Below are positions 9,233-41,560 of a stretch of DNA of 50,972 bases, one piece after another. The DNA is taken from the IMG/VR virus record IMGVR_UViG_3300042975_000098, one strand, 5' to 3'. Under the pieces are notes generated by a model that had not been told where the DNA came from, did not search any database, and worked only from the letters and a program-made list of their open reading frames with translations. A program made the position numbers and the translations under genes. Within the stretch, counting starts at the first letter, position 1; each line of letters begins with the position of its first letter. Origin of the DNA: a virus.

Positions 9233-9511
9233 ATGGCAAAAGGCAAGCACGCGCCGTCGGCGCTGGTCCAGGTGCTCGATGCGATGTTGCTCACGTTCAA
9301 CGCCATCATCATCGTGGCCGCGATAACCGCCATCACGCTCATGATCGTCGTGTGGCGCTCCGGCGGCGCCATCAGCGGCGGGCAGTTGCTCGTGTTCGCC
9401 GGCATCCTGCTGGCCGGGCTTCTGCTCGCGGGCGCGGAGGTGCTGCTGAGACGCGCCGTGGAGCGCATCCACGCGGCCGGCAACCGCCCGCAGTCGCATC
9501 GCCAGCGCTGA
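9233..9511 (+). CDS. Small two-TM membrane protein
   Basis: GATATT at 9203, GGAGG SD, two hydrophobic helices. Confidence 0.6.
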   Translation: MAKGKHAPSALVQVLDAMLLTFNAIIIVAAITAITLMIVVWRSGGAISGGQLLVFAGILLAGLLLAGAEVLLRRAVERIHAAGNRPQSHRQR

Positions 9512-9633
9512 CGGCGGCGCGACCGACTGCCGACGGTAGACGAGGATGGCATCGTGCGCGACGCCGATCGCGGATTCGACGTGATATTCCCGTTCATGGC
9601 AAGAACACCGGCATACTGGATGGGGAGTTTAAT

Positions 9634-11538
9634 ATGATACGTCATCGTTATAACCTGAATGGGAGGGCTCGGCGTGGCTTCACGCTGATAGAACTCCTCG
9701 TGGTCATCGTGATCCTCGGGGTGCTCACCGCGATCGCCGTGCCCATCTACCTGAACCAGCGCGTGGCCGCCTGGAAGGCCACGGTGGTCAGTGATGTCCA
9801 CTCGGCCGCGGAGCAGGTGGAGCTCGCCTCGTACCATGGCGATGGTTCGCTCACCCAGTTGAGCGCGTACCATGATGCGCGCGCCGTGGCTGACGATACC
9901 GCAGACGGGTCGACCATTCTCTCCGATAAGACGTTCCCGAACGCGGACGGGAAGTATGATGGGCACGGCACCATCGGGTCCGAGCCCGTCCCCGTGAGCA
10001 CGGGCAACACCACGGAGATACAAGTCAAATCGGACAACTCGTACACCATCTACGGCGCGAACACGCACGTCCACGGCTGGGTGTACCGGTATGACTCCGC
10101 GCGCGGGGCCGGCGAGTGGGAGCACGGCTCATACCCGTCCGACCCGACCGCGCCCGACCCGGATACTGACTGCCCCGTGGTGCGTGACGGCGCGCGGCTC
10201 GTCATCGGCAAGGACGGCATGAGATGTAAGCTGAGTTCCGCTATGGTGTATGCGGTCATCGGAGACCGGTGGTCGACTAATACCCGGGACGACATCACCG
10301 AGATCGATCTCCACGGGCATATTGTGATCGTGGATGGTTTTTACCTGTTCAACAATATGAAATCGCTGACGACCATGCCCTACCTTCCTGGTCAATCAGT
10401 AACATCCAGCGTGGACGGCGTGTCATACGCGTGTATGTTCTGGGATGACTACAAGCTTACAACACCTGAGTCAATCAGTCATTGGGATACCCGTAACGTC
10501 ACGGACATGAGCGGCATGTTCAACGATGCGCATGCGTTCAACCAGCCGGTATCGAACTTCGACACGAGCAACGTCACGAACATGAGCAGCATGTTCTGGA
10601 ATGCGTATGCGTTCAACCAGCCGGTATCGAACTTCGACACGAGCAACGTCACGGCCATGGGCCTGATGTTCTGGGGTGCGCATGCGTTCAACCAGTCCGT
10701 GTCGAGCTTCGACACGAGCAAGGTAACGAACATGGTCGGCATGTTCAACTATGCGTATGCGTTCAACCAGCCCGTGTCTAACTTCAACACGAGGAACGTC
10801 ACGAACATGAGTTACATGTTCGAAAGTGCGCAAGCGTTCAACCAGCCCGTGTCGAACTTCGACACGAGCAACGTCACGAACATGAGCGGTATGTTCAACT
10901 ATGCGCGTGCGTTCAACCAGTCCGTGTCGAGCTTCAACACGAGCAAAGTCACGGCCATGGGCTATATGTTCGCCCGCGCGTATGCATTCAATCAGTCCGT
11001 ATCGAGCTTCAACACGAGCAAAGTCACGAACATGAACCGTATGTTCGAATATGCGTCTGTGTTCAATCAGTCCGTGTCGAACTTCAACACGAGCAACGTC
11101 ACGAACATGAGCGAAATGTTCAGCGATGCGCAAGCGTTCAACCAGCCGGTGCCGTTCGACACGAGGAACGTCACGGACATGAGCGGCATGTTCAACAGTG
11201 CGCAAGCGTTCAACCAGTCCGTATCGAGCTTCAACACGAGCAACGTCACGGACATGAACGGCATGTTCTGGGGTGCGTATGCGTTCAACCAGTCCGTGTC
11301 TAACTTCAACACGAGCAATGTACGGGACATGAGCGGCATGTTCGGGGGTGCGTATGCGTTCAACCAGCCCGTACCGTTCGACACGGGCAAGGTCACGGAC
11401 ATGGAGAGCATGTTCGTGAATGCAGGCACGTTCAACCAGGACCTGAATGATTGGAACGTCGCCAACGTCACCAGTCATCACGACTTCTCCCCCGGGTCCG
11501 CGCTGACCGCCGCCCACCTCCCCCACTTCACGTCATGA
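9634..11538 (+). CDS. Type IV pilin (prepilin N-methylation motif) fused to BspA/DUF285 surface repeats
   Basis: RRG^FTLIELLVVIVILGVLTAIAVP; ~13 repeats of FDTSNVTNMSGMFxxAxAFNQxVSx; GGGAG SD. Confidence 0.9.
   Translation: MIRHRYNLNGRARRGFTLIELLVVIVILGVLTAIAVPIYLNQRVAAWKATVVSDVHSAAEQVELASYHGDGSLTQLSAYHDARAVADDTADGSTILSDKTFPNADGKYDGHGTIGSEPVPVSTGNTTEIQVKSDNSYTIYGANTHVHGWVYRYDSARGAGEWEHGSYPSDPTAPDPDTDCPVVRDGARLVIGKDGMRCKLSSAMVYAVIGDRWSTNTRDDITEIDLHGHIVIVDGFYLFNNMKSLTTMPYLPGQSVTSSVDGVSYACMFWDDYKLTTPESISHWDTRNVTDMSGMFNDAHAFNQPVSNFDTSNVTNMSSMFWNAYAFNQPVSNFDTSNVTAMGLMFWGAHAFNQSVSSFDTSKVTNMVGMFNYAYAFNQPVSNFNTRNVTNMSYMFESAQAFNQPVSNFDTSNVTNMSGMFNYARAFNQSVSSFNTSKVTAMGYMFARAYAFNQSVSSFNTSKVTNMNRMFEYASVFNQSVSNFNTSNVTNMSEMFSDAQAFNQPVPFDTRNVTDMSGMFNSAQAFNQSVSSFNTSNVTDMNGMFWGAYAFNQSVSNFNTSNVRDMSGMFGGAYAFNQPVPFDTGKVTDMESMFVNAGTFNQDLNDWNVANVTSHHDFSPGSALTAAHLPHFTS
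10483..11470 (+). repeat. Coding tandem repeats, 72-75 bp units (DUF285/BspA)
   Basis: Recurrent GCGTTCAACCAG.C.GT.TCGA.CTTC.ACACGAGCAA.GTCACG. Confidence 0.95.
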
Positions 11539-12137: not shown

Positions 12138-13744
12138 TTGACTTCCTCCCCACGGCTGAAGCCGGGGGATTCCTGTCGCGTATGAGACACGTTCCTCAGT
12201 GGAGGAGCCTTCCGATACGTGTGGCAGGGGTTGGCGTTTCAGCGGGACCTTCCCGTGAAACATAGGTTTCACGGGTGGCGTGTCCCTCCACGCCCTCGGC
12301 ATCGTCCATGCCGGTTGTGTGTACCGCGCGGCCGAGGATGTTCTTGGCCGCGTTGATGTCCGCATTGTCCTTGTTACCGCAGTTGACGCATTGGAAGACC
12401 GCTTGGCTCTCACGGTTCTCCTTTGCGACATGACCGCAACGGCTGCAGGTCTGGGACGTGTACGCCGGGTCGATCAGTATGAGTCGGGTTCCGGCGAGAC
12501 GGGTCTTGTATTCGAGTTTGCTCTGGATATCCGCCCAACGGTTGTTGAGGATACTACGGTTCAATCCCGCTTTGGCCGCCGCACCGTTGCGCAGGTAGCG
12601 CCCCTTGTGATTGGGGTCCTGTTTCGGTTTCGGCTTGCGGGTCATTTGCCGGGTGTTCAACGCTTCCAAGGCGATGAGATCGTAGTCTTCGACCAGTCGG
12701 GTCGTGGTCTTCGCGACCCAATCGTCCTTGCGGTTGTTGGTGCGGCGGCGTATCGAACCCATGCGATTCAATGTGAGTTTGCGTCGTTTCGATTGGAATT
12801 TCGCGGTTTTCCCGCCACGCCGGCTGTTAACCGCGTCCTGCCGGGCGAGTTTGCGTTGCAGACGCAGATACGCTTGCTTCTCCCGTTTGGACGGTTGCGG
12901 CATGTCCAGCATGGTTCCATTCGACAAGGCCAATGTGTGGGCGCAACCACGGTCGATGCCGGTCTGCCGACCGGTGGCATTCCGCCGGATGGGTGACGGA
13001 ATGTTGGTGAACGTCAGAGTGCGTTCCGTCCAATTCACCCCGACACTCGTATAATCCCTGACGGGTTGGCTGACGCGCACGTGAATGGTGAGCCTCCAAC
13101 GGCATCCCGTTTCGCCCGGCTTGCGGAATGCTTTTTTCACGGTTCCGGTGATGACGACCACGCCACGCTTGCGTGACACCTGATGGTAGATGGCGTTGCC
13201 CGTCTTGGTTTGGTTGCGCCAACATACGAAATACTGGGGGTTGTGTTTGCGGGATTTGAACCCCGGGACACGGCCGCCATTATTCTTCTTGCGTTTCAAT
13301 GCGGCGTACCATTCCGAGTTCTCCACGCGCGTGGGACTGGCGAGAACGGCTGCGGGAATGCATGCGAGCCAAGAACACCGGGTTCGTGCCTCACTGTCCT
13401 TGCATGGCTCCCCGACGGCCGCCCCACCCAAGGGGACGTCCACCCACATGCGCTCATGGGATTCCATACCCTCCATGTAGCGGCGGATGACCCGATGCTC
13501 CCGATGCTGGTTGAAACGGGTGCGCCAACCATCACACAGCCAGTCCATGATGCGTTCGGGGTTGCGCGTCCAGCAATGGTTGTGGCATGAATCGTCGCCA
13601 AGGTACACGGTCGCGCCCGTGTGCCTGACTCTGATGATTCGTACCTTCTGGCTCATACTTTACATCTTACCACGAAAATAGTGATTAATCAAAAATGGCG
13701 GCTTACCCCAGTCTTACAAGACGGGGCTTGCGCCGCCCCCCCCT
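12138..13744 (-). mobile_element. IS200/IS605-family (IS1341-type, tnpB only) element
   Basis: Left-end hairpin GCCCCGTCTTGTAAGACTGGGG; right end GAATCCCCCGGCTTCAGCCGTGGGGAGGAAGTCAA; inserted 3' of TGAC with no target duplication. Confidence 0.92.
12196..13656 (-). CDS. tnpB: RNA-guided endonuclease TnpB
   Basis: RuvC motifs GIDRG / IALEAL / NADINAAKNI; Zn finger CSRC..CVNC. Confidence 0.95.
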   Translation of the reverse strand: MSQKVRIIRVRHTGATVYLGDDSCHNHCWTRNPERIMDWLCDGWRTRFNQHREHRVIRRYMEGMESHERMWVDVPLGGAAVGEPCKDSEARTRCSWLACIPAAVLASPTRVENSEWYAALKRKKNNGGRVPGFKSRKHNPQYFVCWRNQTKTGNAIYHQVSRKRGVVVITGTVKKAFRKPGETGCRWRLTIHVRVSQPVRDYTSVGVNWTERTLTFTNIPSPIRRNATGRQTGIDRGCAHTLALSNGTMLDMPQPSKREKQAYLRLQRKLARQDAVNSRRGGKTAKFQSKRRKLTLNRMGSIRRRTNNRKDDWVAKTTTRLVEDYDLIALEALNTRQMTRKPKPKQDPNHKGRYLRNGAAAKAGLNRSILNNRWADIQSKLEYKTRLAGTRLILIDPAYTSQTCSRCGHVAKENRESQAVFQCVNCGNKDNADINAAKNILGRAVHTTGMDDAEGVEGHATRETYVSREGPAETPTPATRIGRLLH

Positions 13745-13855
13745 GTCATCCAGTTCGGTCATCGATCGTCCTCCCATGTCGGCGTTGCCGGCGGTCGCGC
13801 GCGATCGTCCACGATCACGGTGCCGCCGGCCCGGTCATGATGATATTCAACGGGC

Positions 13856-14824
13856 ATGACTATGAGGGTGAGATGCGACGGACGGCACCTGTGGACGGTG
13901 ATGCGGGCGGCGACCGGCGAGGTGACGACGATGACCGCCGACCAGATCGTGAGCGACGGCGTGGGCAAGTGGCTGTTCCCCGCGCCGGGCGGCCGCTGGC
14001 TGCGCGCGCGTTCCGTCCGCGCCGTCGGCCCGGAGCCCGTGCGGTGTATCCGCGTGGATGACCCGTCCCACCTGTACGTGGTGGACACCGGCGACGGTTT
14101 CATCTACTCGCATAACACGGGCGGCGGCAAGTCCGTGCTCCAGCGCAACATCATCTTCCACGTCATCACGCACGCGAAGGAGATCAAGTTCCTCGGCATC
14201 GACCTCAAGAGGGTCGAACTCTCCCGGTACAAGAAGTACTCGAACGCGGTGCTCGGCGTGGCCACCACGCTGGAGGACGCCGTGGAGATACTCAGGTTCG
14301 CCCGCGAGACGATGATGAACCGGTACGCCGACATGGAGGGGATCACCGACAACTTCCTCGAACTCAAGAACGCGGGCCCGGCGCTGCTGGTCATGGTGGA
14401 CGAGGCCGGCGAACTGCTCGACCAGGGCGGCGGCAAGGCGCTGAGGGCGGACACCGAGGTGCGCAACCTGGAGGGGCGGGCGAACATCGGCGAGATCGAG
14501 ACCGGCGATCACGTGCTCGGCGAGGACGGGCGATGGCACGAGGTCACGGAGACGCTGCGCCCGCCGCGCCAGCGCGAGTACTCGCTCACGTTCGCCCGCG
14601 GGTCGGACGGCCGGAGGGAATCGTTCGTCGCCGGCGAGAACCATGACTGGGTGGTGACGATGCCGGGCGGCGAGCGCCGACGATTGAGCACCGGGGAGCT
14701 CCACGCGCTATGGTCGGCGACGCCGCCGGCCGAGAGGCGGGGCATCACGTTCACCCGGGCCGCCGCCATCGAGGATGACGCCGCCGGCGACGCCGACCGG
14801 GCGAACACGCGACACGCCGAGTAA
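13856..14824 (+). CDS. Split-intein fragment: IntC (13856-14116) - FtsK/SpoIIIE-type ATPase core (14117-14437) - IntN (14438-14821)
   Basis: RCDGRHLW (block B), EPVRCIRVD (F), YSHN/T (G); TGGGKS Walker A tail, GIDLKRVEL, LLVMVDEAGELL Walker B; ALRADTEV..IGEIETGDHVLGEDG (block A), AGENHDW (block B); in-frame TGA at 13841 just upstream. Confidence 0.85.
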   Translation: MTMRVRCDGRHLWTVMRAATGEVTTMTADQIVSDGVGKWLFPAPGGRWLRARSVRAVGPEPVRCIRVDDPSHLYVVDTGDGFIYSHNTGGGKSVLQRNIIFHVITHAKEIKFLGIDLKRVELSRYKKYSNAVLGVATTLEDAVEILRFARETMMNRYADMEGITDNFLELKNAGPALLVMVDEAGELLDQGGGKALRADTEVRNLEGRANIGEIETGDHVLGEDGRWHEVTETLRPPRQREYSLTFARGSDGRRESFVAGENHDWVVTMPGGERRRLSTGELHALWSATPPAERRGITFTRAAAIEDDAAGDADRANTRHAE

Positions 14825-15149: not shown

Positions 15150-15188
15150 CCACCTGCGGACGGGGGGGGGTGGGTTGCCGTCGCTTCG

Positions 15189-15405
15189 CCGCTATACCTG
15201 ATAGCTCCCTCCTTTAACACGATTTGAGGGGGTCGACCCGTGGCTTTCCCGTTGGCCATGACCAGTAGGTGGTGGAGTGATAGTGGCCTCATCATCATGC
15301 TGTGCGGACGCGCTGGGTCTTGCCGGACTGTAGTTCTGGGATTCACTGGACCCGCTTCCCGTGCTGCCGACCGTATACCTGATAGCTCCCTCCTTTAACA
15401 CGATT
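15189..15405 (-). repeat. Left arm of the repeat array: two core copies, perfect inverted duplicate of 16125-16341
   Basis: 217-bp identity on the opposite strand, compared by eye. Confidence 0.95.
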
Positions 15406-15775
15406 CCGAGGGGTCGCCGGCAGCATCCCGATACGGCGATGACATGGGCTGGCGCGGCACAGAATGGCCGAACGGCGTCGCCGGCACCGTTGACGGTGAC
15501 GCGAGCAGCACCGTAGAAACGGTAGAACGATTCGACCGTGGACGTCATCTGGTTCGCTCGCGCCGCCATCGTCTCGTGGGCGACGACGGGCGGGGTCGAC
15601 ATGGCGGTGATGGCGATCGCGAGCATGATGACGGCGGTGATGCCGATCGGCCAGCGTGAGCGGTCGACGCTGGCGTCGTGGTCATGAGCGCCATCGCGAT
15701 GATGTCCACGATGGCGAGCGCGAGGACGAGCACGATGGCCGCCGCCCGCTCCCATTCCGCGGCGTCATGCGTCAC
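15406..15775 (-). pseudogene. Possible membrane protein, frameshifted and cut off by the repeat arm
   Basis: Two hydrophobic helices in different frames (AAAIVLVLALAIVDIIAMAL; WPIGITAVIMLAIAITAM). Confidence 0.35.
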
Positions 15776-16100
15776 GAGCCCCGGTTCCTATGAGCATGAT
15801 CGCTCCCCTTCCTGATCGTGGTGCCAAGCATACGCCGTCGTTGCCGGCGACACGCGAGCGATCGGCGGCGATTTGATGGCGATCCGCGACGCGGTTCGTC
15901 GTAATCGGTCGGCAATGCCCCTGAGAATGACGAGGATGGCGTGTGAAGCGATAACATCACAATTACGTATAATCCTACCGCGTTTGACAATAAGTCGCTG
16001 TGAGGGGCCTTTACGTGCGTCTGAGGGCCATATCGTGTTTAGCCCATCATCACGGTGACCGTCGGTCGGTGGCGTTTCCATGAAACGAACTGGTCCACGC

Positions 16101-17150
16101 GAAAGCTACGGGTCAACCCCGTCAAATCGTGTTAAAGGAGGGAGCTATCAGGTATACGGTCGGCAGCACGGGAAGCGGGTCCAGTGAATCCCAGAACTAC
16201 AGTCCGGCAAGACCCAGCGCGTCCGCACAGCATGATGATGAGGCCACTATCACTCCACCACCTACTGGTCATGGCCAACGGGAAAGCCACGGGTCGACCC
16301 CCTCAAATCGTGTTAAAGGAGGGAGCTATCAGGTATAGCGGGGGCCGCCGCCGAAGCGAACCCGGTCATGACACGGCACGACACAATAGCCGTAGTGGCA
16401 ACGGGTCCACGCGACGGAGCGGATACCACATGGCGACCGTCATCAGCATATCCGTCAAAAGCTATGACCCTACCCCTCAGAATCGTGTTAAAGGAGGGAG
16501 CTATCAGGTATAGCGTGCCACAGGCGAAGCAGTCATAGCCACAACGGCAATAGTCCCACGCATGCCAATCGCAATTAGCGCGCCCCGTCCGAAAAGCTAC
16601 GAGGCAACCCCTTAAATCGCGTTAAAGGAGGGAGCTATCAGGTATAGCGATAGCCACGGCGCAGCGAACCTGGCCATGACATCACCATGGGGGCCACAAA
16701 CCATTCCGCTGTCCCCGCCAGTGACGCCAGTTGTCATCACGAACACCATCAATGAAAAGCCACGGGTCAACCCCGTCAAATCGCGTTAAAGGAGGGAGCT
16801 ATCAGGTATAGCGCGCCACAGGCGAAGCAAGATCAACCAGCACCCTTAACAAGACAAGGCCTCATGTGCTAGCCACCCCCAGCGATGCCCACCGTGCCCC
16901 TCACTCCACGGTGATGTGAAGCCATGATTAACACCGTCAAATCGTGTTAAAGGCGGAAGCTATCAGGTATAGCGGGCGCAGGCACGCCGGACGATCACGG
17001 GACTCCCTCAACGGCAACGAGGAGCCATCAGCACTATCGTCACCGAGTACAAGCGAATGGGAAGCCAATACCATCATCAGGTCAATCGCAAACGACATGG
17101 CGGCGACCCGTCAAATCGTGTTAAGGGTGGAAGCTATCAGGTATAGCGGG
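16101..17150 (+). repeat. Array of seven direct repeats, core AATCG(T/C)GTTAAAGGAGGGAGCTATCAGGTATAGCG, period 134-181 bp (candidate origin or protein-binding array)
   Basis: Cores start at 16125, 16306, 16481, 16615, 16779, 16940 and 17114; most are preceded by a looser AAAGCYAC...ACCCC.TCA; no credible ORF. Confidence 0.95.
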
Positions 17151-17306
17151 CGGCGGCCCAGAGAACCCCCCGCATACCACAGTCAACAGCGGCCCGTCAA
17201 CATGGAGCTCCCACCATCAGCATCGGGAATACGGAACGGGGGCGACACCACATGGGCATCGTCCCCGTCCGCTCGCGGTCACGCCGGCATCATCGGCGAG
17301 CCGGAG

Positions 17307-17645
17307 TCACAGCCATCGCGTGAGCATCATCAGCCCGACCGCCGCGAACGCGCCGCCGCCGATCGCGTTCCACACGCCGAGACCGGGTATGGGGCCGTCC
17401 TGCCCCATGAAGTTGAACACGATGATGATGACGAGACCGAGCAGCATGAGCCCGAACGACGTCGGCGCCAGCCAGTCGGGGCTGGTGGGCTTCGCCTTCG
17501 CCTCCTCGGCGTTCCGCTTCGTGGTCTCCACGGACTTCTTCAATGTTTCGCGGATACGATCGGGCATCGGCCCGTTGTCAACGTCATCCAGCGCCGCGCG
17601 CACCTTGGCGACGGCCTCCTCGATCTCTTCATCCTCATTGGTCAT
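17307..17645 (-). CDS. crgA: Cell division protein CrgA
   Basis: SPDWLAPTSFGLMLLGLVIIIVF...PIPGLGVWN..GG.....GLMMLTRW; leaderless ATG 8 nt after GATATT. Confidence 0.85.
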   Translation of the reverse strand: MTNEDEEIEEAVAKVRAALDDVDNGPMPDRIRETLKKSVETTKRNAEEAKAKPTSPDWLAPTSFGLMLLGLVIIIVFNFMGQDGPIPGLGVWNAIGGGAFAAVGLMMLTRWL

Positions 17646-18992: not shown

Positions 18993-19582
18993 ATGAGGCT
19001 GAGTGGTTACGCTAGGAAGATGGGCGTGACGTGGAAGACCGCGAACCGGTGGTTCCATGCCGGTCAGATTCCCGGCGCTTACCAGTTACCATCAGGAACC
19101 ATCATCGTCCCGATAACGATGAGAAACATGATGAGCGGGACAACGACGGGGAGACCATCGTTTATGCTCGGGTGGGCAGCGCCTCTCAACGGAAGACGGA
19201 TCTTGAGACGCAAGCGAAACGTCTCGTGGATTACAGTAACGCGCGCGGATGGAACGTTGACCGGATCGTGAAGGAGGTCGGATCGGGCTTGAACGATCGT
19301 AGGCCGAAGCTGGAGGCCATCCTCACAAGCAGTAAGCCCGTTGCCCGTATCGTATTCGAGCATAAGGACAGACTCACACGATTCGGGTACAGGTATCTCG
19401 AGCTTCTAGCCGGTAAGAACGGAACGGAGCTGGTCTGCGTGAACCCGGCGGTCGATGACAAGGATGATCTGCTTCAGGATCTCACGAGCATCATCACATC
19501 GTTCTGCGCTAGGATCTATGGTCAGCGCAGGGGCAAGCGGAAGACCGAGCAGCTCACGGCTGATCTCAAGGAGACCGCATGA
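18993..19582 (+). pseudogene. tnpA: IS607 transposase (MerR-like HTH plus serine recombinase), frameshift at ~19110
   Basis: MRLSGYARKMGVTWKTANRWF..GAYQLPSGTIIV in one frame; IVYARVGS..EVGSGLNDRRPKL..EHKDRLTRFG..SFCARIYG in the next. Confidence 0.85.
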
Positions 19583-20820
19583 TGCAGCTCGTAGAGAAGA
19601 CCGTCACGCGAAGATCCAAGCAGGGGTGGAGCGCGATGGACCATCTTGCGTTCCTCAGCAAGAATCTCTATAACGCGACGCTCTACGCGATGAGGCAGGA
19701 GTACTTCAGGAGCGGCCGCACGCTCACATGGCAGTCGCTCTCGAAGCGGTTCGTGAGAGAGAGGAACCCGGACTTCTATGCGCTTCCCACGAAGGTGAGC
19801 AAGGAGGTGCTCATGCAGGTCGGTCGGGAGTACATCGCATTCTTCCGTCTCCTCAAGCTCAAGAACGCAGGGAGGTATGACAAGCCCATCCATCTCCCGA
19901 AGTACAAGGACAAGGCGAACGGGAGGAACGTGATCACGTTCCCGGGTCAAACGATTAGCGGTCATCGTACAGAGGTAAGACCCGGTCTTTACGAGTACAC
20001 GGTCTGCTCCAAGAGCCTGAACATGAAGTTCTTGTCCCGTCATGAGAACGTGATCATGTTCAAGGTCGTTCCAAGAGCCTGCTCTTATGAGATCCACGCG
20101 GTCTATAGTGTGGAGGAGCCGGTCATTGACCCGGAGCGGAAGCGACGCTGGGCTTCAGGCGACATTGGCGTGGATAACCTTCTCACCGTGTGGGCCGGTC
20201 CAGCATCATTCATCGTGAACGGCAAGCCCGTCAAATCCATCAACCAATACTACAATAGGACCATGGCTCATCTTCAGTCGGAATGGGGCCAGAACAGGAG
20301 GAAGAACGACAAGCACAGGACGCGGAGGATGAACATGATGACATCAAAACGGAATCGTCTCGTTGACGGGTATCTGCATCGTGCGAGCCGCATGATCGTG
20401 AATCAATTAGCTTCCATCGGGGTAACCGACCTTGCGGTCGGTTACAACGCCGGTTGGAAGCAAGACACGAGCATGGGGCGGGTGCAGAACCAGAAGTTCG
20501 TGGCGATTCCGTTCGCAAGATTCCTGACCATGCTGGGTTACAAGCTCAGAATGGCGGGTATCACGCTTCACCTCACGGAGGAGTCCTACACAAGCAAGTG
20601 CAGCTACGTGGACGCGGAATCCATGTCAAGGCATGGCTCATATGCCGGGAAGCGCGTGAAGCGCGGGCTGTTCAGGACCAGTAACGGATCGTTCGTGAAC
20701 GCGGACGTGAACGGAGCGGCGAACATCCTAAGAAAGGTAATCGGGATGACGGCCTACACCGTCTACTCGATAGAGGATACTGCAGTGCATCCAGCAAGGC
20801 TCACGCCTTGCGAACACTAA
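19579..20820 (+). CDS. tnpB: IS607-associated TnpB
   Basis: SKNLYN, SGDIGVDNL, NGKPVKSINQYYN, EESYTSKCS, RVKRGLF, NADVNGAANI. Confidence 0.93.
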   Translation: MMQLVEKTVTRRSKQGWSAMDHLAFLSKNLYNATLYAMRQEYFRSGRTLTWQSLSKRFVRERNPDFYALPTKVSKEVLMQVGREYIAFFRLLKLKNAGRYDKPIHLPKYKDKANGRNVITFPGQTISGHRTEVRPGLYEYTVCSKSLNMKFLSRHENVIMFKVVPRACSYEIHAVYSVEEPVIDPERKRRWASGDIGVDNLLTVWAGPASFIVNGKPVKSINQYYNRTMAHLQSEWGQNRRKNDKHRTRRMNMMTSKRNRLVDGYLHRASRMIVNQLASIGVTDLAVGYNAGWKQDTSMGRVQNQKFVAIPFARFLTMLGYKLRMAGITLHLTEESYTSKCSYVDAESMSRHGSYAGKRVKRGLFRTSNGSFVNADVNGAANILRKVIGMTAYTVYSIEDTAVHPARLTPCEH

Positions 20821-22579: not shown

Positions 22580-23201
22580 ATGGGGAGTGAACATGCTGGG
22601 GTGATCGTCGATATCGACGGCGTGCTCGGTGATTTCGTGACCGCCATGTCGCGCTGGACCTTCGATGCATCGTGGCGTCACCGGCCTGGGCGAGCCATCA
22701 TCGTACTCGTTCGCCGCCGACCCTTGCTGGCGGCGGGCCTACCGTTCAGACGGCGAGTTCGCGGCCGCGCTGACGATGGCCGGCGAGAGCGGACTGTACC
22801 TGTCGGAGCCGGTTCTCGACCCCGGCGCCGCGCGTGCCATCGCCGATCTTCGCGATCGCGGCGCCCGCGTGCTCGCGGTGACGGCGCGTTCGGATGGCGA
22901 TCCGTCGGTGGATGCCGTGATCAGGCGCGACACCGCTGGCTGGCTGGCCGCGCATGGGTTCGTGGTCGATGGGCTGGTGTTCGCCGCCGATAAGCTTGCG
23001 GTCGGCTGCGACGTGATCATCGAGGATTCGCCGATCACCATCGCCCGCGCCGTCGCCGCCGGGATTCGCGCCGTCCGCGTTCCCCACCCGTATAACGCGA
23101 TGTCCGGCGGGGTGGCCATGCGAGCGTGGTCGGCGGACGTCATTCCTCGGCGATTGACCGCGACCCGCCATCGCTCTACGTCGATTACGCTCATACGGTA
23201 A
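22580..23201 (+). pseudogene. HAD-family 5'(3')-deoxyribonucleotidase-like protein, frameshift at ~22660
   Basis: VIVDIDGVLGDF (motif I), then in another frame VLAVTAR, WLAAHGF, DK, IIEDSP, PHPYN. Confidence 0.8.
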
Positions 23202-23307
23202 GCAAACGCTTGACGTGTGAGCGTATTTTCCATGCGCCGTCGAAAAAACGGCGTTTTCGATGCCACGGTCACGAAACCGTGTTACGGCGTTCTACGTGGC
23301 TTACAGC
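23172..23307 (+). repeat. Intact copy of the ~135-bp structured dispersed repeat
   Basis: Three stem-loops (TACGCTCATACG/CGTGTGAGCGTA, CGCCGT/ACGGCG, CACGGT/ACCGTG); TCTACGT.G.TTAC at both ends; homologous to 540-585 plus 2285-2379. Confidence 0.85.
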
Positions 23308-23370
23308 GCGCGTGGCATCATCTCCCCGTCGTGATAGCATGGTGCCTATCTGGTTTTGAAGGAGGACATC

Positions 23371-41533: not shown

Positions 41534-41560
41534 CGCCGCCCGCATCGATATTCCGCTCCC

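Follow-up and report, generated by a model that had tools for sequence, protein, structure and literature searches.

A doubly intein-flanked module of an FtsK/TcpA-type ATPase, probably the third of four trans-spliced pieces, in a giant mobile element

Split inteins are known, and in the literature that was searched all natural ones join two polypeptides, one of them being of class 3. This class is defined by a non-nucleophilic residue 1, by Trp at position 12 of block B, Cys at F4 and Thr at G5 (the WCT triplet), by Thr or Ser at +1 after a C-terminal His-Asn, and by a branched intermediate that involves a block-F thioester (PMC2807308). The present study concerns a gene carrying parts of two such inteins, located at positions 13856-14824 (+ strand) of IMG/VR virus record IMGVR_UViG_3300042975_000098, a stretch of 50,972 nucleotides hereafter called the window. 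Judging from its sequence and from those of its relatives, this open reading frame (ORF) probably encodes the third of most likely four separate modules of a membrane-anchored, FtsK/TcpA-type conjugative DNA-transfer ATPase, which would be joined by trans-splicing through three split inteins (a, b and c). This multi-piece, three-intein, class-3 arrangement is new: the literature covered, which was incomplete, described neither inteins in FtsK or coupling proteins nor any natural protein that inteins assemble from three or more pieces.

The intein of AceL NrdHF is reported to be the first natural example of a split class-3 intein, no split form having been found among 1701 class-3 inteins in nr (PMC7891396). 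Like the inteins studied here, it starts with a non-nucleophilic residue, uses a block-F Cys as nucleophile and has its halves encoded by separate genes, and its split (98/48 aa, amino acids) falls at the same canonical site as that of intein c (about 128/45 aa). It differs in that one protein is cut in two, that the locus is a fractured gene whose halves flank a GIY-YIG endonuclease, and that the triplet is an aberrant MCT; the present system has dispersed genes, lacks an endonuclease and displays three split inteins per protein with canonical W-C-T/S residues, two of the split sites being non-canonical. Fractured genes with split inteins (gp41-1, NrdJ-1, IMPDH-1 and others) likewise encode conserved enzymes of mobile elements in pieces bounded by intein halves (PMC2677866). 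In those loci the two pieces are adjacent on the same strand and flank a free-standing homing endonuclease, unlike the four pieces described below, which lie 3 to more than 100 kb apart on both strands with no such gene. The atypical split inteins of phage terminases (AceL-TerL, GOS-TerL and Cat-TerL) share with intein a a very short N-fragment (25-37 aa in their case) and a long C-fragment (PMC11766414), but they occur once per protein and belong to class 1 (Cys1/Ser1), whereas intein a is of class 3 with a stub of about 12 aa and intein b is cut at a further site.

The topology itself, a middle module placed between the halves of two orthogonal split inteins, has been engineered for tandem protein trans-splicing with IntC-insert-IntN constructs (IntC and IntN being the C- and N-terminal intein fragments; PMC7210297). 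Those laboratory constructs use unrelated class-1 inteins, whereas the present system is a natural conserved gene set. The closest solved intein relatives were Msm DnaBi1 (6bs8) and MchDnaB-1 (6rix), also inserted in an ATPase P-loop region; these mycobacterial DnaB inteins of class 3 are contiguous, cis-splicing and found in replicative helicases (PMC6195587, PMC7664689). On the extein side, TcpA, the FtsK-like coupling protein of the Clostridium perfringens conjugative plasmid pCW3 (PDB 6o1w-6o1z), also has a membrane anchor at its N-terminus and a motor domain of the FtsK type, but it is a single polypeptide without inteins and its sequence similarity to the reassembled extein is modest.

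The ORF encodes 322 aa and falls into three parts. Its first 87 residues (13856..14116, +) form the C-terminal part of split class-3 intein b (IntC-b), with block B (H11 at 13886-13888 and W13 at 13892-13894, +), the block-F Cys (C64, 14045-14047, +) and block G (S85-H86-N87, ending at 14116, +). The following 107 residues (T88-K194, 14117..14437, +) are the extein core, which runs from TGGGKS through Walker B (MVDEAG) and ends DEAGELL..GGGK; T88 is the +1 nucleophile and opens TGGGKS, the second half of Walker A, and K194 is the last extein residue. The remaining 128 residues (14438..14821, +) are the N-terminal part of split class-3 intein c (IntN-c), with A195, block A and block B (H263 at 14642-14644 and W265 at 14648-14650, +). 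Direct reading of residues 195-322 for blocks F and G found none, and a TAA stop (14822..14824, +) closes the frame inside intein c. Upstream, an in-frame TGA (13841-13843) lies four codons ahead of the ATG, and a -10-like hexamer, GATATT (13842..13847, +), stands exactly 8 nt ahead of it.

Profile searches agreed with this organization. The intein_Cterm model TIGR01443 matched residues 61-88 above its cut-off, PF01580 (FtsK_SpoIIIE) matched residues 88-161 of the core (34.9 bits against a cut-off of 24), and Hom_end_hint matched residues 209-268 weakly. Compared with solved class-3 inteins, the family profile displayed its matches in permuted order, positions 6-89 corresponding to residues 57-145 of MchDnaB-1 (E 6e-10) and positions 199-237 to residues 1-39. 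The extein core was 83% identical to that of a relative, L001, and collinear with the intein-free homologue P0179; according to the latter alignment the motor domain is complete only once the core is joined to partner exteins. A Foldseek comparison of the AlphaFold model of the ORF returned pCW3 TcpA (6o1x, root-mean-square deviation 2.8 A over 113 columns) as well as class-3 inteins, with E-values all above 0.001, so that these matches fit the proposed organization and are not decisive.

Both intein halves displayed the hallmarks of class 3. Residue 1 of IntN-c is A195, nearly invariant in relatives, and the partners of inteins a and b in relatives begin with Pro, as does the prototype MP-Be DnaB intein (PMC2807308). 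The triplet was found in IntC-b as W13, C64 and S85; IntN-c supplies W265, its block-F Cys and block-G Thr being located on partner C-terminal pieces (..C..VDSP..PTHN). H86, N87 and T88 were invariant in 29 sequences, and in the C-terminal pieces HN is followed by T or S. In the profile alignment the block-B Trp, the block-F Cys and THN were in register with 6rix and 6bs8. Taken together, these sequence features support the assignment of both halves to class 3, as non-cognate halves split at different positions. A preliminary description, made from the letters of the window, had proposed this anatomy (IntC of 87 aa, core of 107 aa, IntN of 128 aa), and it proved correct in every checkable detail: the stop four codons upstream and the GATATT 8 nt before the ATG were read directly, and the insertion sequence (IS) that it placed in the divergent neighbouring gene is a TnpB gene (12196-13656, -). 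Its recognition of class-3 marks agreed with the triplet, Ala1, +1 Thr and register just given, and its suspicion that the halves are not cognate is borne out by the presence of block B in both and of a separate partner gene for each in relatives.

The gene is neither an assembly artefact nor an isolated occurrence. An independent JGI (Joint Genome Institute) assembly, L072, contains the same ORF with the same start and identical stop at 98.5% nucleotide identity and also covers the end of the neighbouring TnpB element; since the ORF is repeated there with the same ends, misassembly is excluded. A search over 5.8 billion proteins recovered 148 homologues of near-equal length and 83 longer ones, and the 218 retrieved cluster representatives were classified by segment. 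The organization of our ORF (IntC-b, core, IntN-c) occurred in 38 clusters, 40-58% identical, which have in common the start, the stop (relatives end at the equivalent position) and the splicing residues; with the shortest start taken, all these proteins begin 3-9 residues ahead of the block-B motif CD..HLW. A short IntC at the neighbouring GK/S site (slashes mark insertion points), followed by core and IntN-c, was found in 42 clusters and, with core, contiguous intein c and C-extein, in 20. IntC-b was followed by core and C-extein in 35 clusters and by core, contiguous intein c and C-extein in 6. Others displayed a contiguous intein a (24), an adaptor fused with the middle piece via a contiguous intein b (10), a free-standing IntC-c with C-extein (9) or no intein (16). 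Residues H11, C64, H86, N87 and T88 were invariant in 29 middle pieces 40-57% identical to the ORF protein, and W13, K194, A195, H263 and W265 were nearly so, which indicates selection for splicing competence and not decay. In a tree of the core extein (109 columns, from a quick, unfinished search and used for clade structure only) the architectures grouped by clade, and the split and contiguous states had replaced one another several times. A tblastn search against phage and plasmid collections yielded no match to the ORF, an exact 51-mer of the gene had none in viral_contigs and metagenome_contigs, and no recorded protein was identical to the ORF product.

Partner genes were found in relatives, where the complete set comprised four pieces: an N-extein that finishes with a stub of intein a, about 12 aa long (piece 1), an adaptor composed of IntC-a, the tripeptide CGG and IntN-b (piece 2), a middle piece of the type encoded by our ORF (piece 3), and IntC-c with the C-extein (piece 4). 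All four were single-copy and located within 10.7 kb in a 111-kb element represented by two independent assemblies, L001 and L002. The L001 middle piece was 58% identical to the ORF product. Its membrane-anchored N-piece (405 aa) ends ..TTPMGLV followed by PLDTQTQVW.. and a short tail; the adaptor (225 aa, opposite strand) consists of a long IntC-a, HN/CGG/ and a 57-aa IntN-b with Pro first; and the C-piece (298 aa) has a 44-aa IntC-c (..LYCLTVDSP..VPTHN) at its start, then TDEAKA.. and the remaining motor. A second element displayed C-piece, adaptor and middle piece on one 19-kb contig recurring in several samples, with the C-piece 13.8 kb upstream of the middle piece.

A complete circular element, G004 (IMG/VR, 419,707 bp, direct terminal repeats, CheckV 100%), which originates from the same sample as L072, contained one copy of each: N-piece (208864-209895, +), adaptor (104866-105615, -), middle piece (100868-101818, -) and C-piece (91772-92662, -). 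A PF01580 scan of G004 did not find a contiguous paralogue of the motor gene. Among retrieved relatives L084 was the nearest to the window in composition (G+C 0.61), and it has a 136-bp dispersed repeat in common with it (window 23177-23312). Its N-piece ends ..TTPMSLV then PLATDTKV.. (the intein-a stub) and its C-piece, 4.7 kb away, begins with a 45-aa IntC-c and has Ser at +1, both genes spanning 6.8 kb. In relatives the pieces were separated by 3 kb to more than 100 kb, on both strands, with unrelated genes between them. Pieces 1, 2 and 4 had no Pfam match when searched singly, so standard annotation would miss them.

These partners agree in part with what the preliminary description had predicted. 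C-pieces with blocks F and G, HN, a Ser or Thr and the FtsK C-terminus were indeed present in relatives, and the notion of a multi-piece trans-spliced protein with a stand-alone middle module stood; the number of components did not, since the traced relatives use four genes and three inteins instead of three and two. Neither was the first half of Walker A encoded by the N-terminal gene, being located on the separate IntC-a/CGG/IntN-b adaptor, nor did that gene end in a block-A IntN; in relatives it closes with a short stub (about 12 aa) from a third intein. From this comparison we infer that the partner of the IntC of our ORF would be a 50-85 aa block-A fragment on an adaptor gene.

The four pieces fit together. 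When the L001 exteins were joined in silico, the resulting 752 aa could be aligned with intein-free P0179 with zero gap at junctions a and b (..LV/CGG/TGGGKS.. against ..LICGGTGGGKS..) and a 1-residue gap two columns before junction c (..AK/TDEAKA.. against ..VKTDEGKA..). The inteins could be completed in the same way: placed end to end, IntN-c of the window and the 45-aa IntC-c of L084 cover the contiguous 190-aa intein c of P0121 without overlap, and the contiguous intein b of P0128, itself alignable with class-3 Msm DnaBi1, is likewise covered by IntN-b plus IntC-b. Orthologous halves were 43-65% identical between elements, whereas paralogous halves within one element could be aligned only around the catalytic blocks, which indicates that three distinct inteins have been kept in parallel. 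Each is cut at a different position of the fold: intein a some 12 residues in, intein b within the hairpin that immediately precedes block B (50-85 aa + 87 aa) and intein c at the canonical site (about 120-128 aa + 45 aa). With three different cuts only cognate halves should make one HINT domain, and the set would consequently be orthogonal. Charge complementarity was observed in intein b (IntN-b -9 to -17, IntC-b +2 to +3); in intein c it was looked for and not seen.

The following order of events is modelled on the class-3 pathway of PMC2807308. IntC-b would dock onto the 50-85 aa IntN-b of the adaptor protein (IntC-a, CGG, IntN-b), where C64 would attack the Gly-Pro bond preceding IntN-b; the upstream chain would then be transferred to T88, and cyclisation of N87 would seal the P-loop CGG-TGGGKS. 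IntN-c would dock independently onto the IntC-c of about 45 aa of the C-terminal gene product, whose block-F Cys would attack the K194-A195 bond, with transfer of the growing chain onto Ser or Thr at +1 in the C-piece. Intein a, split after about 12 residues, would ligate the membrane anchor to the Cys of CGG.

Several points weigh against this scheme. Neither tblastn, run with the pieces of three elements, nor regular expressions for the motifs located partner pieces in the window, and a metagenome scan with the adaptor alignment confirmed no adaptor gene of the high-G+C lineage. Residue G5 of IntC-b is Ser in this copy and mostly Thr in relatives, and the +1 residue of intein a is Cys, a rarity in class 3. 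The AlphaFold model was moderate (pLDDT, predicted local distance difference test, 72), with values below 50 at residues 60-91. Finally, the comparison of nonsynonymous and synonymous substitution rates (dN/dS) with the 98.5% identical L072 copy rested on 4 differences and was uninformative on selection.

The foremost of the other explanations keeps the trans-splicing and changes the number of pieces. In this genome the N-terminal gene might carry N-extein, CGG and IntN-b, with neither intein a nor adaptor, giving three pieces; a related three-piece layout exists in some lineages, as P0225 and P0226 display a contiguous intein a, then CGS and IntN-b on the N-terminal gene. We consider it unlikely here, because the N-piece of L084, the nearest in G+C, ends in an intein-a stub of about 12 aa and not in IntN-b, and because an adaptor gene was present in 3/3 elements in which the partner of a block-B-started IntC-b could be traced. 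The ORF would thus very probably be functional as module 3 of 4 and, less likely, as the middle of 3. A quite improbable variant would have the intein halves act as non-covalent docking modules, the ATPase being active without peptide-bond formation. Split-intein halves do bind tightly and splicing is here deduced from sequence; docking would, however, not need the block-F Cys, the His-Asn, the +1 Thr and the block-B His and Trp that were invariant or nearly so in 29 sequences, and ATP binding would be unlikely in an unspliced P-loop, where the two HINT domains stand three residues from each other.

One might suspect that an intein-bearing FtsK gene, disrupted by TnpB or by rearrangement, has left the ORF as a decaying remnant, given the TnpB gene 199 bp upstream of the ORF and the existence, in the same window, of a true 33-codon leftover of a second copy (556-654). 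Yet the same start and end were kept in 38 clusters, in genomic contexts that differ from one another and have no TnpB beside the middle pieces, so the IS did not create the split; the frame and motifs are also intact and preceded by a promoter-like motif of their own. This origin therefore appears very improbable, and a pseudogene was rejected in view of the conserved ends, intact frame and invariant splicing residues. The preliminary description had already suggested that the split was not freshly made, a view confirmed by the same 38 clusters; of the refuting cases that it had envisaged, misassembly is ruled out by the L072 copy and a deletion remnant is contradicted by these clusters. The least credible of all, to the point of being nearly dismissible, is a natural cassette of the SICLOPPS type (split-intein circular ligation of peptides and proteins) yielding a circular 107-aa peptide. 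The IntC-X-IntN order is that of SICLOPPS, but both halves contain block B and could form no single HINT fold together, and the extein is an incomplete ATPase core; this cassette was rejected because the flanking IntC and IntN come from different inteins, for each of which relatives encode a partner half on a separate gene. A fractured-gene locus was also rejected, the pieces being neither adjacent nor on one strand and having unrelated genes between them.

Expression signals differed between the pieces. The start region of the ORF had no Shine-Dalgarno sequence and, with the GATATT hexamer, is probably leaderless. The arrangement GATATT-N8-ATG occurred at 6 sites in the window against 0.30 expected, one of them ahead of a type IV coupling protein (T4CP) gene at 41547. 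It was also present ahead of L001 pieces 2, 3 and 4 and of the L084 C-piece, and G004 pieces 2, 3 and 4 displayed a close variant, [GC]ATATC-N8-ATG. The N-pieces of L001 and L084 had a Shine-Dalgarno sequence instead and both sit after a DnaG and a signal-peptidase gene (the start of the G004 N-piece is uncertain). The presence of the motif on the last three pieces but not on the N-piece is the one hint, and a weak one, in favour of the post-translational AND gate imagined in the preliminary description. One may tentatively picture, as a possibility well short of probable, an assembly line of four products and three orthogonal class-3 split inteins in which the anchor would be expressed with replication genes and the adaptor, middle and C-terminal modules from an element-specific leaderless promoter motif, maturation being gated on the transfer regulon, and in which sister lineages may use a three-fragment intein.

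Candidates for such a three-fragment intein were encountered in a sister lineage with insertion at GGGK/S (L083:3025-5411; L095:976-2406; L096:1480-2112; L092:1411-2622, from IMGVR_UViG_3300031088_000782; and L097, from the metagenome-assembled genome (MAG) DUQJ01). There, N-pieces end in 10-16 aa of intein, middle pieces begin with about 40 aa (blocks F and G), and a free-standing gene of 190-219 aa without extein contains the rest of block A and block B (..GNHLW..). This gene was found in three GGGK/S elements (E 2e-22, 7.5e-18) and not in the b-type element G004. According to a 2023 preprint, inteins had so far been found encoded by one or two genes. The N-piece at L095:976-2406 further displayed a contiguous Cys1, class-1-like mini-intein before CFIGGGTGGGK and a split stub after GGGK, which brings the P-loop of this family to at least 4 insertion sites or intein types across lineages.

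The mature protein can be judged from P0179, which combines N-terminal membrane segments with an FtsK-type motor and whose best solved match was pCW3 TcpA (E 5e-23), ahead of FtsK; by its sequence the motor would have a conjugative coupling function. The window, besides a TraG/TraD-like T4CP, encodes a VirB11/T2SSE-type ATPase, a Toprim protein, an FtsX-like permease, TelA and two TnpB. In relatives, whose contigs reach about 700 kb, DnaG, RecA, NrdD and RNR (ribonucleotide reductase) genes are present. The window belongs to a giant mobile element of an uncultured host. Among GTDB species genomes, close relatives occurred only on small contigs in MAGs of unrelated taxa; these contigs are probably mis-binned and therefore allow no host assignment. 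Inteins appear to be abundant in elements of this group, and in a related element (L064:18238-20771 and L068:3651-7661) the NrdD of 1336 aa has an intein carrying a LAGLIDADG domain.

Other features of the window concern repeats and traces of mobility. The low-G+C segment 556-1810 resembles a truncated version of the locus that came from a relative of lower G+C: the 33-codon remnant at 556-654 is 70% identical to L001 residues 99-131 and is followed by homologues of the two genes downstream of the L001 middle piece (ORF 713-1525 being 62% identical). The two TnpB genes (IS200/IS605-family RNA-guided nuclease) lie at 12196-13656 (-) and 19579-20820 (+). The 5' region of the first (13498-13742) appears repeated in inverted orientation at 1898-2147; positions 1-245 of L072 match these segments at 98.5% and 94%, respectively, and the L072 contig breaks inside the repeat. 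Downstream of the ORF, the repeat-rich stretch 15170-17400 is rearranged and partly inverted with respect to L072:1571-3510. Gene 9352-11538 (+) combines a type-IV-pilin-like N-terminus (..GFTLIELLVV..) with many tandem repeats of about 24 aa (motif FNQ.VS.F.TS.VT.M) of DUF285/BspA-type appearance.

If the proposed assembly holds true, it would represent the first natural case of tandem trans-splicing, with IntC-X-IntN modules of which one has an extein three residues long. It would also provide three mutually compatible, Cys1-free split inteins with three natural split sites, whereas engineers build such sets by hand. For giant mobile elements it would mean that the scattering of an essential transfer gene is tolerated, and a regulatory use of protein splicing would become testable in a defined four-gene system.

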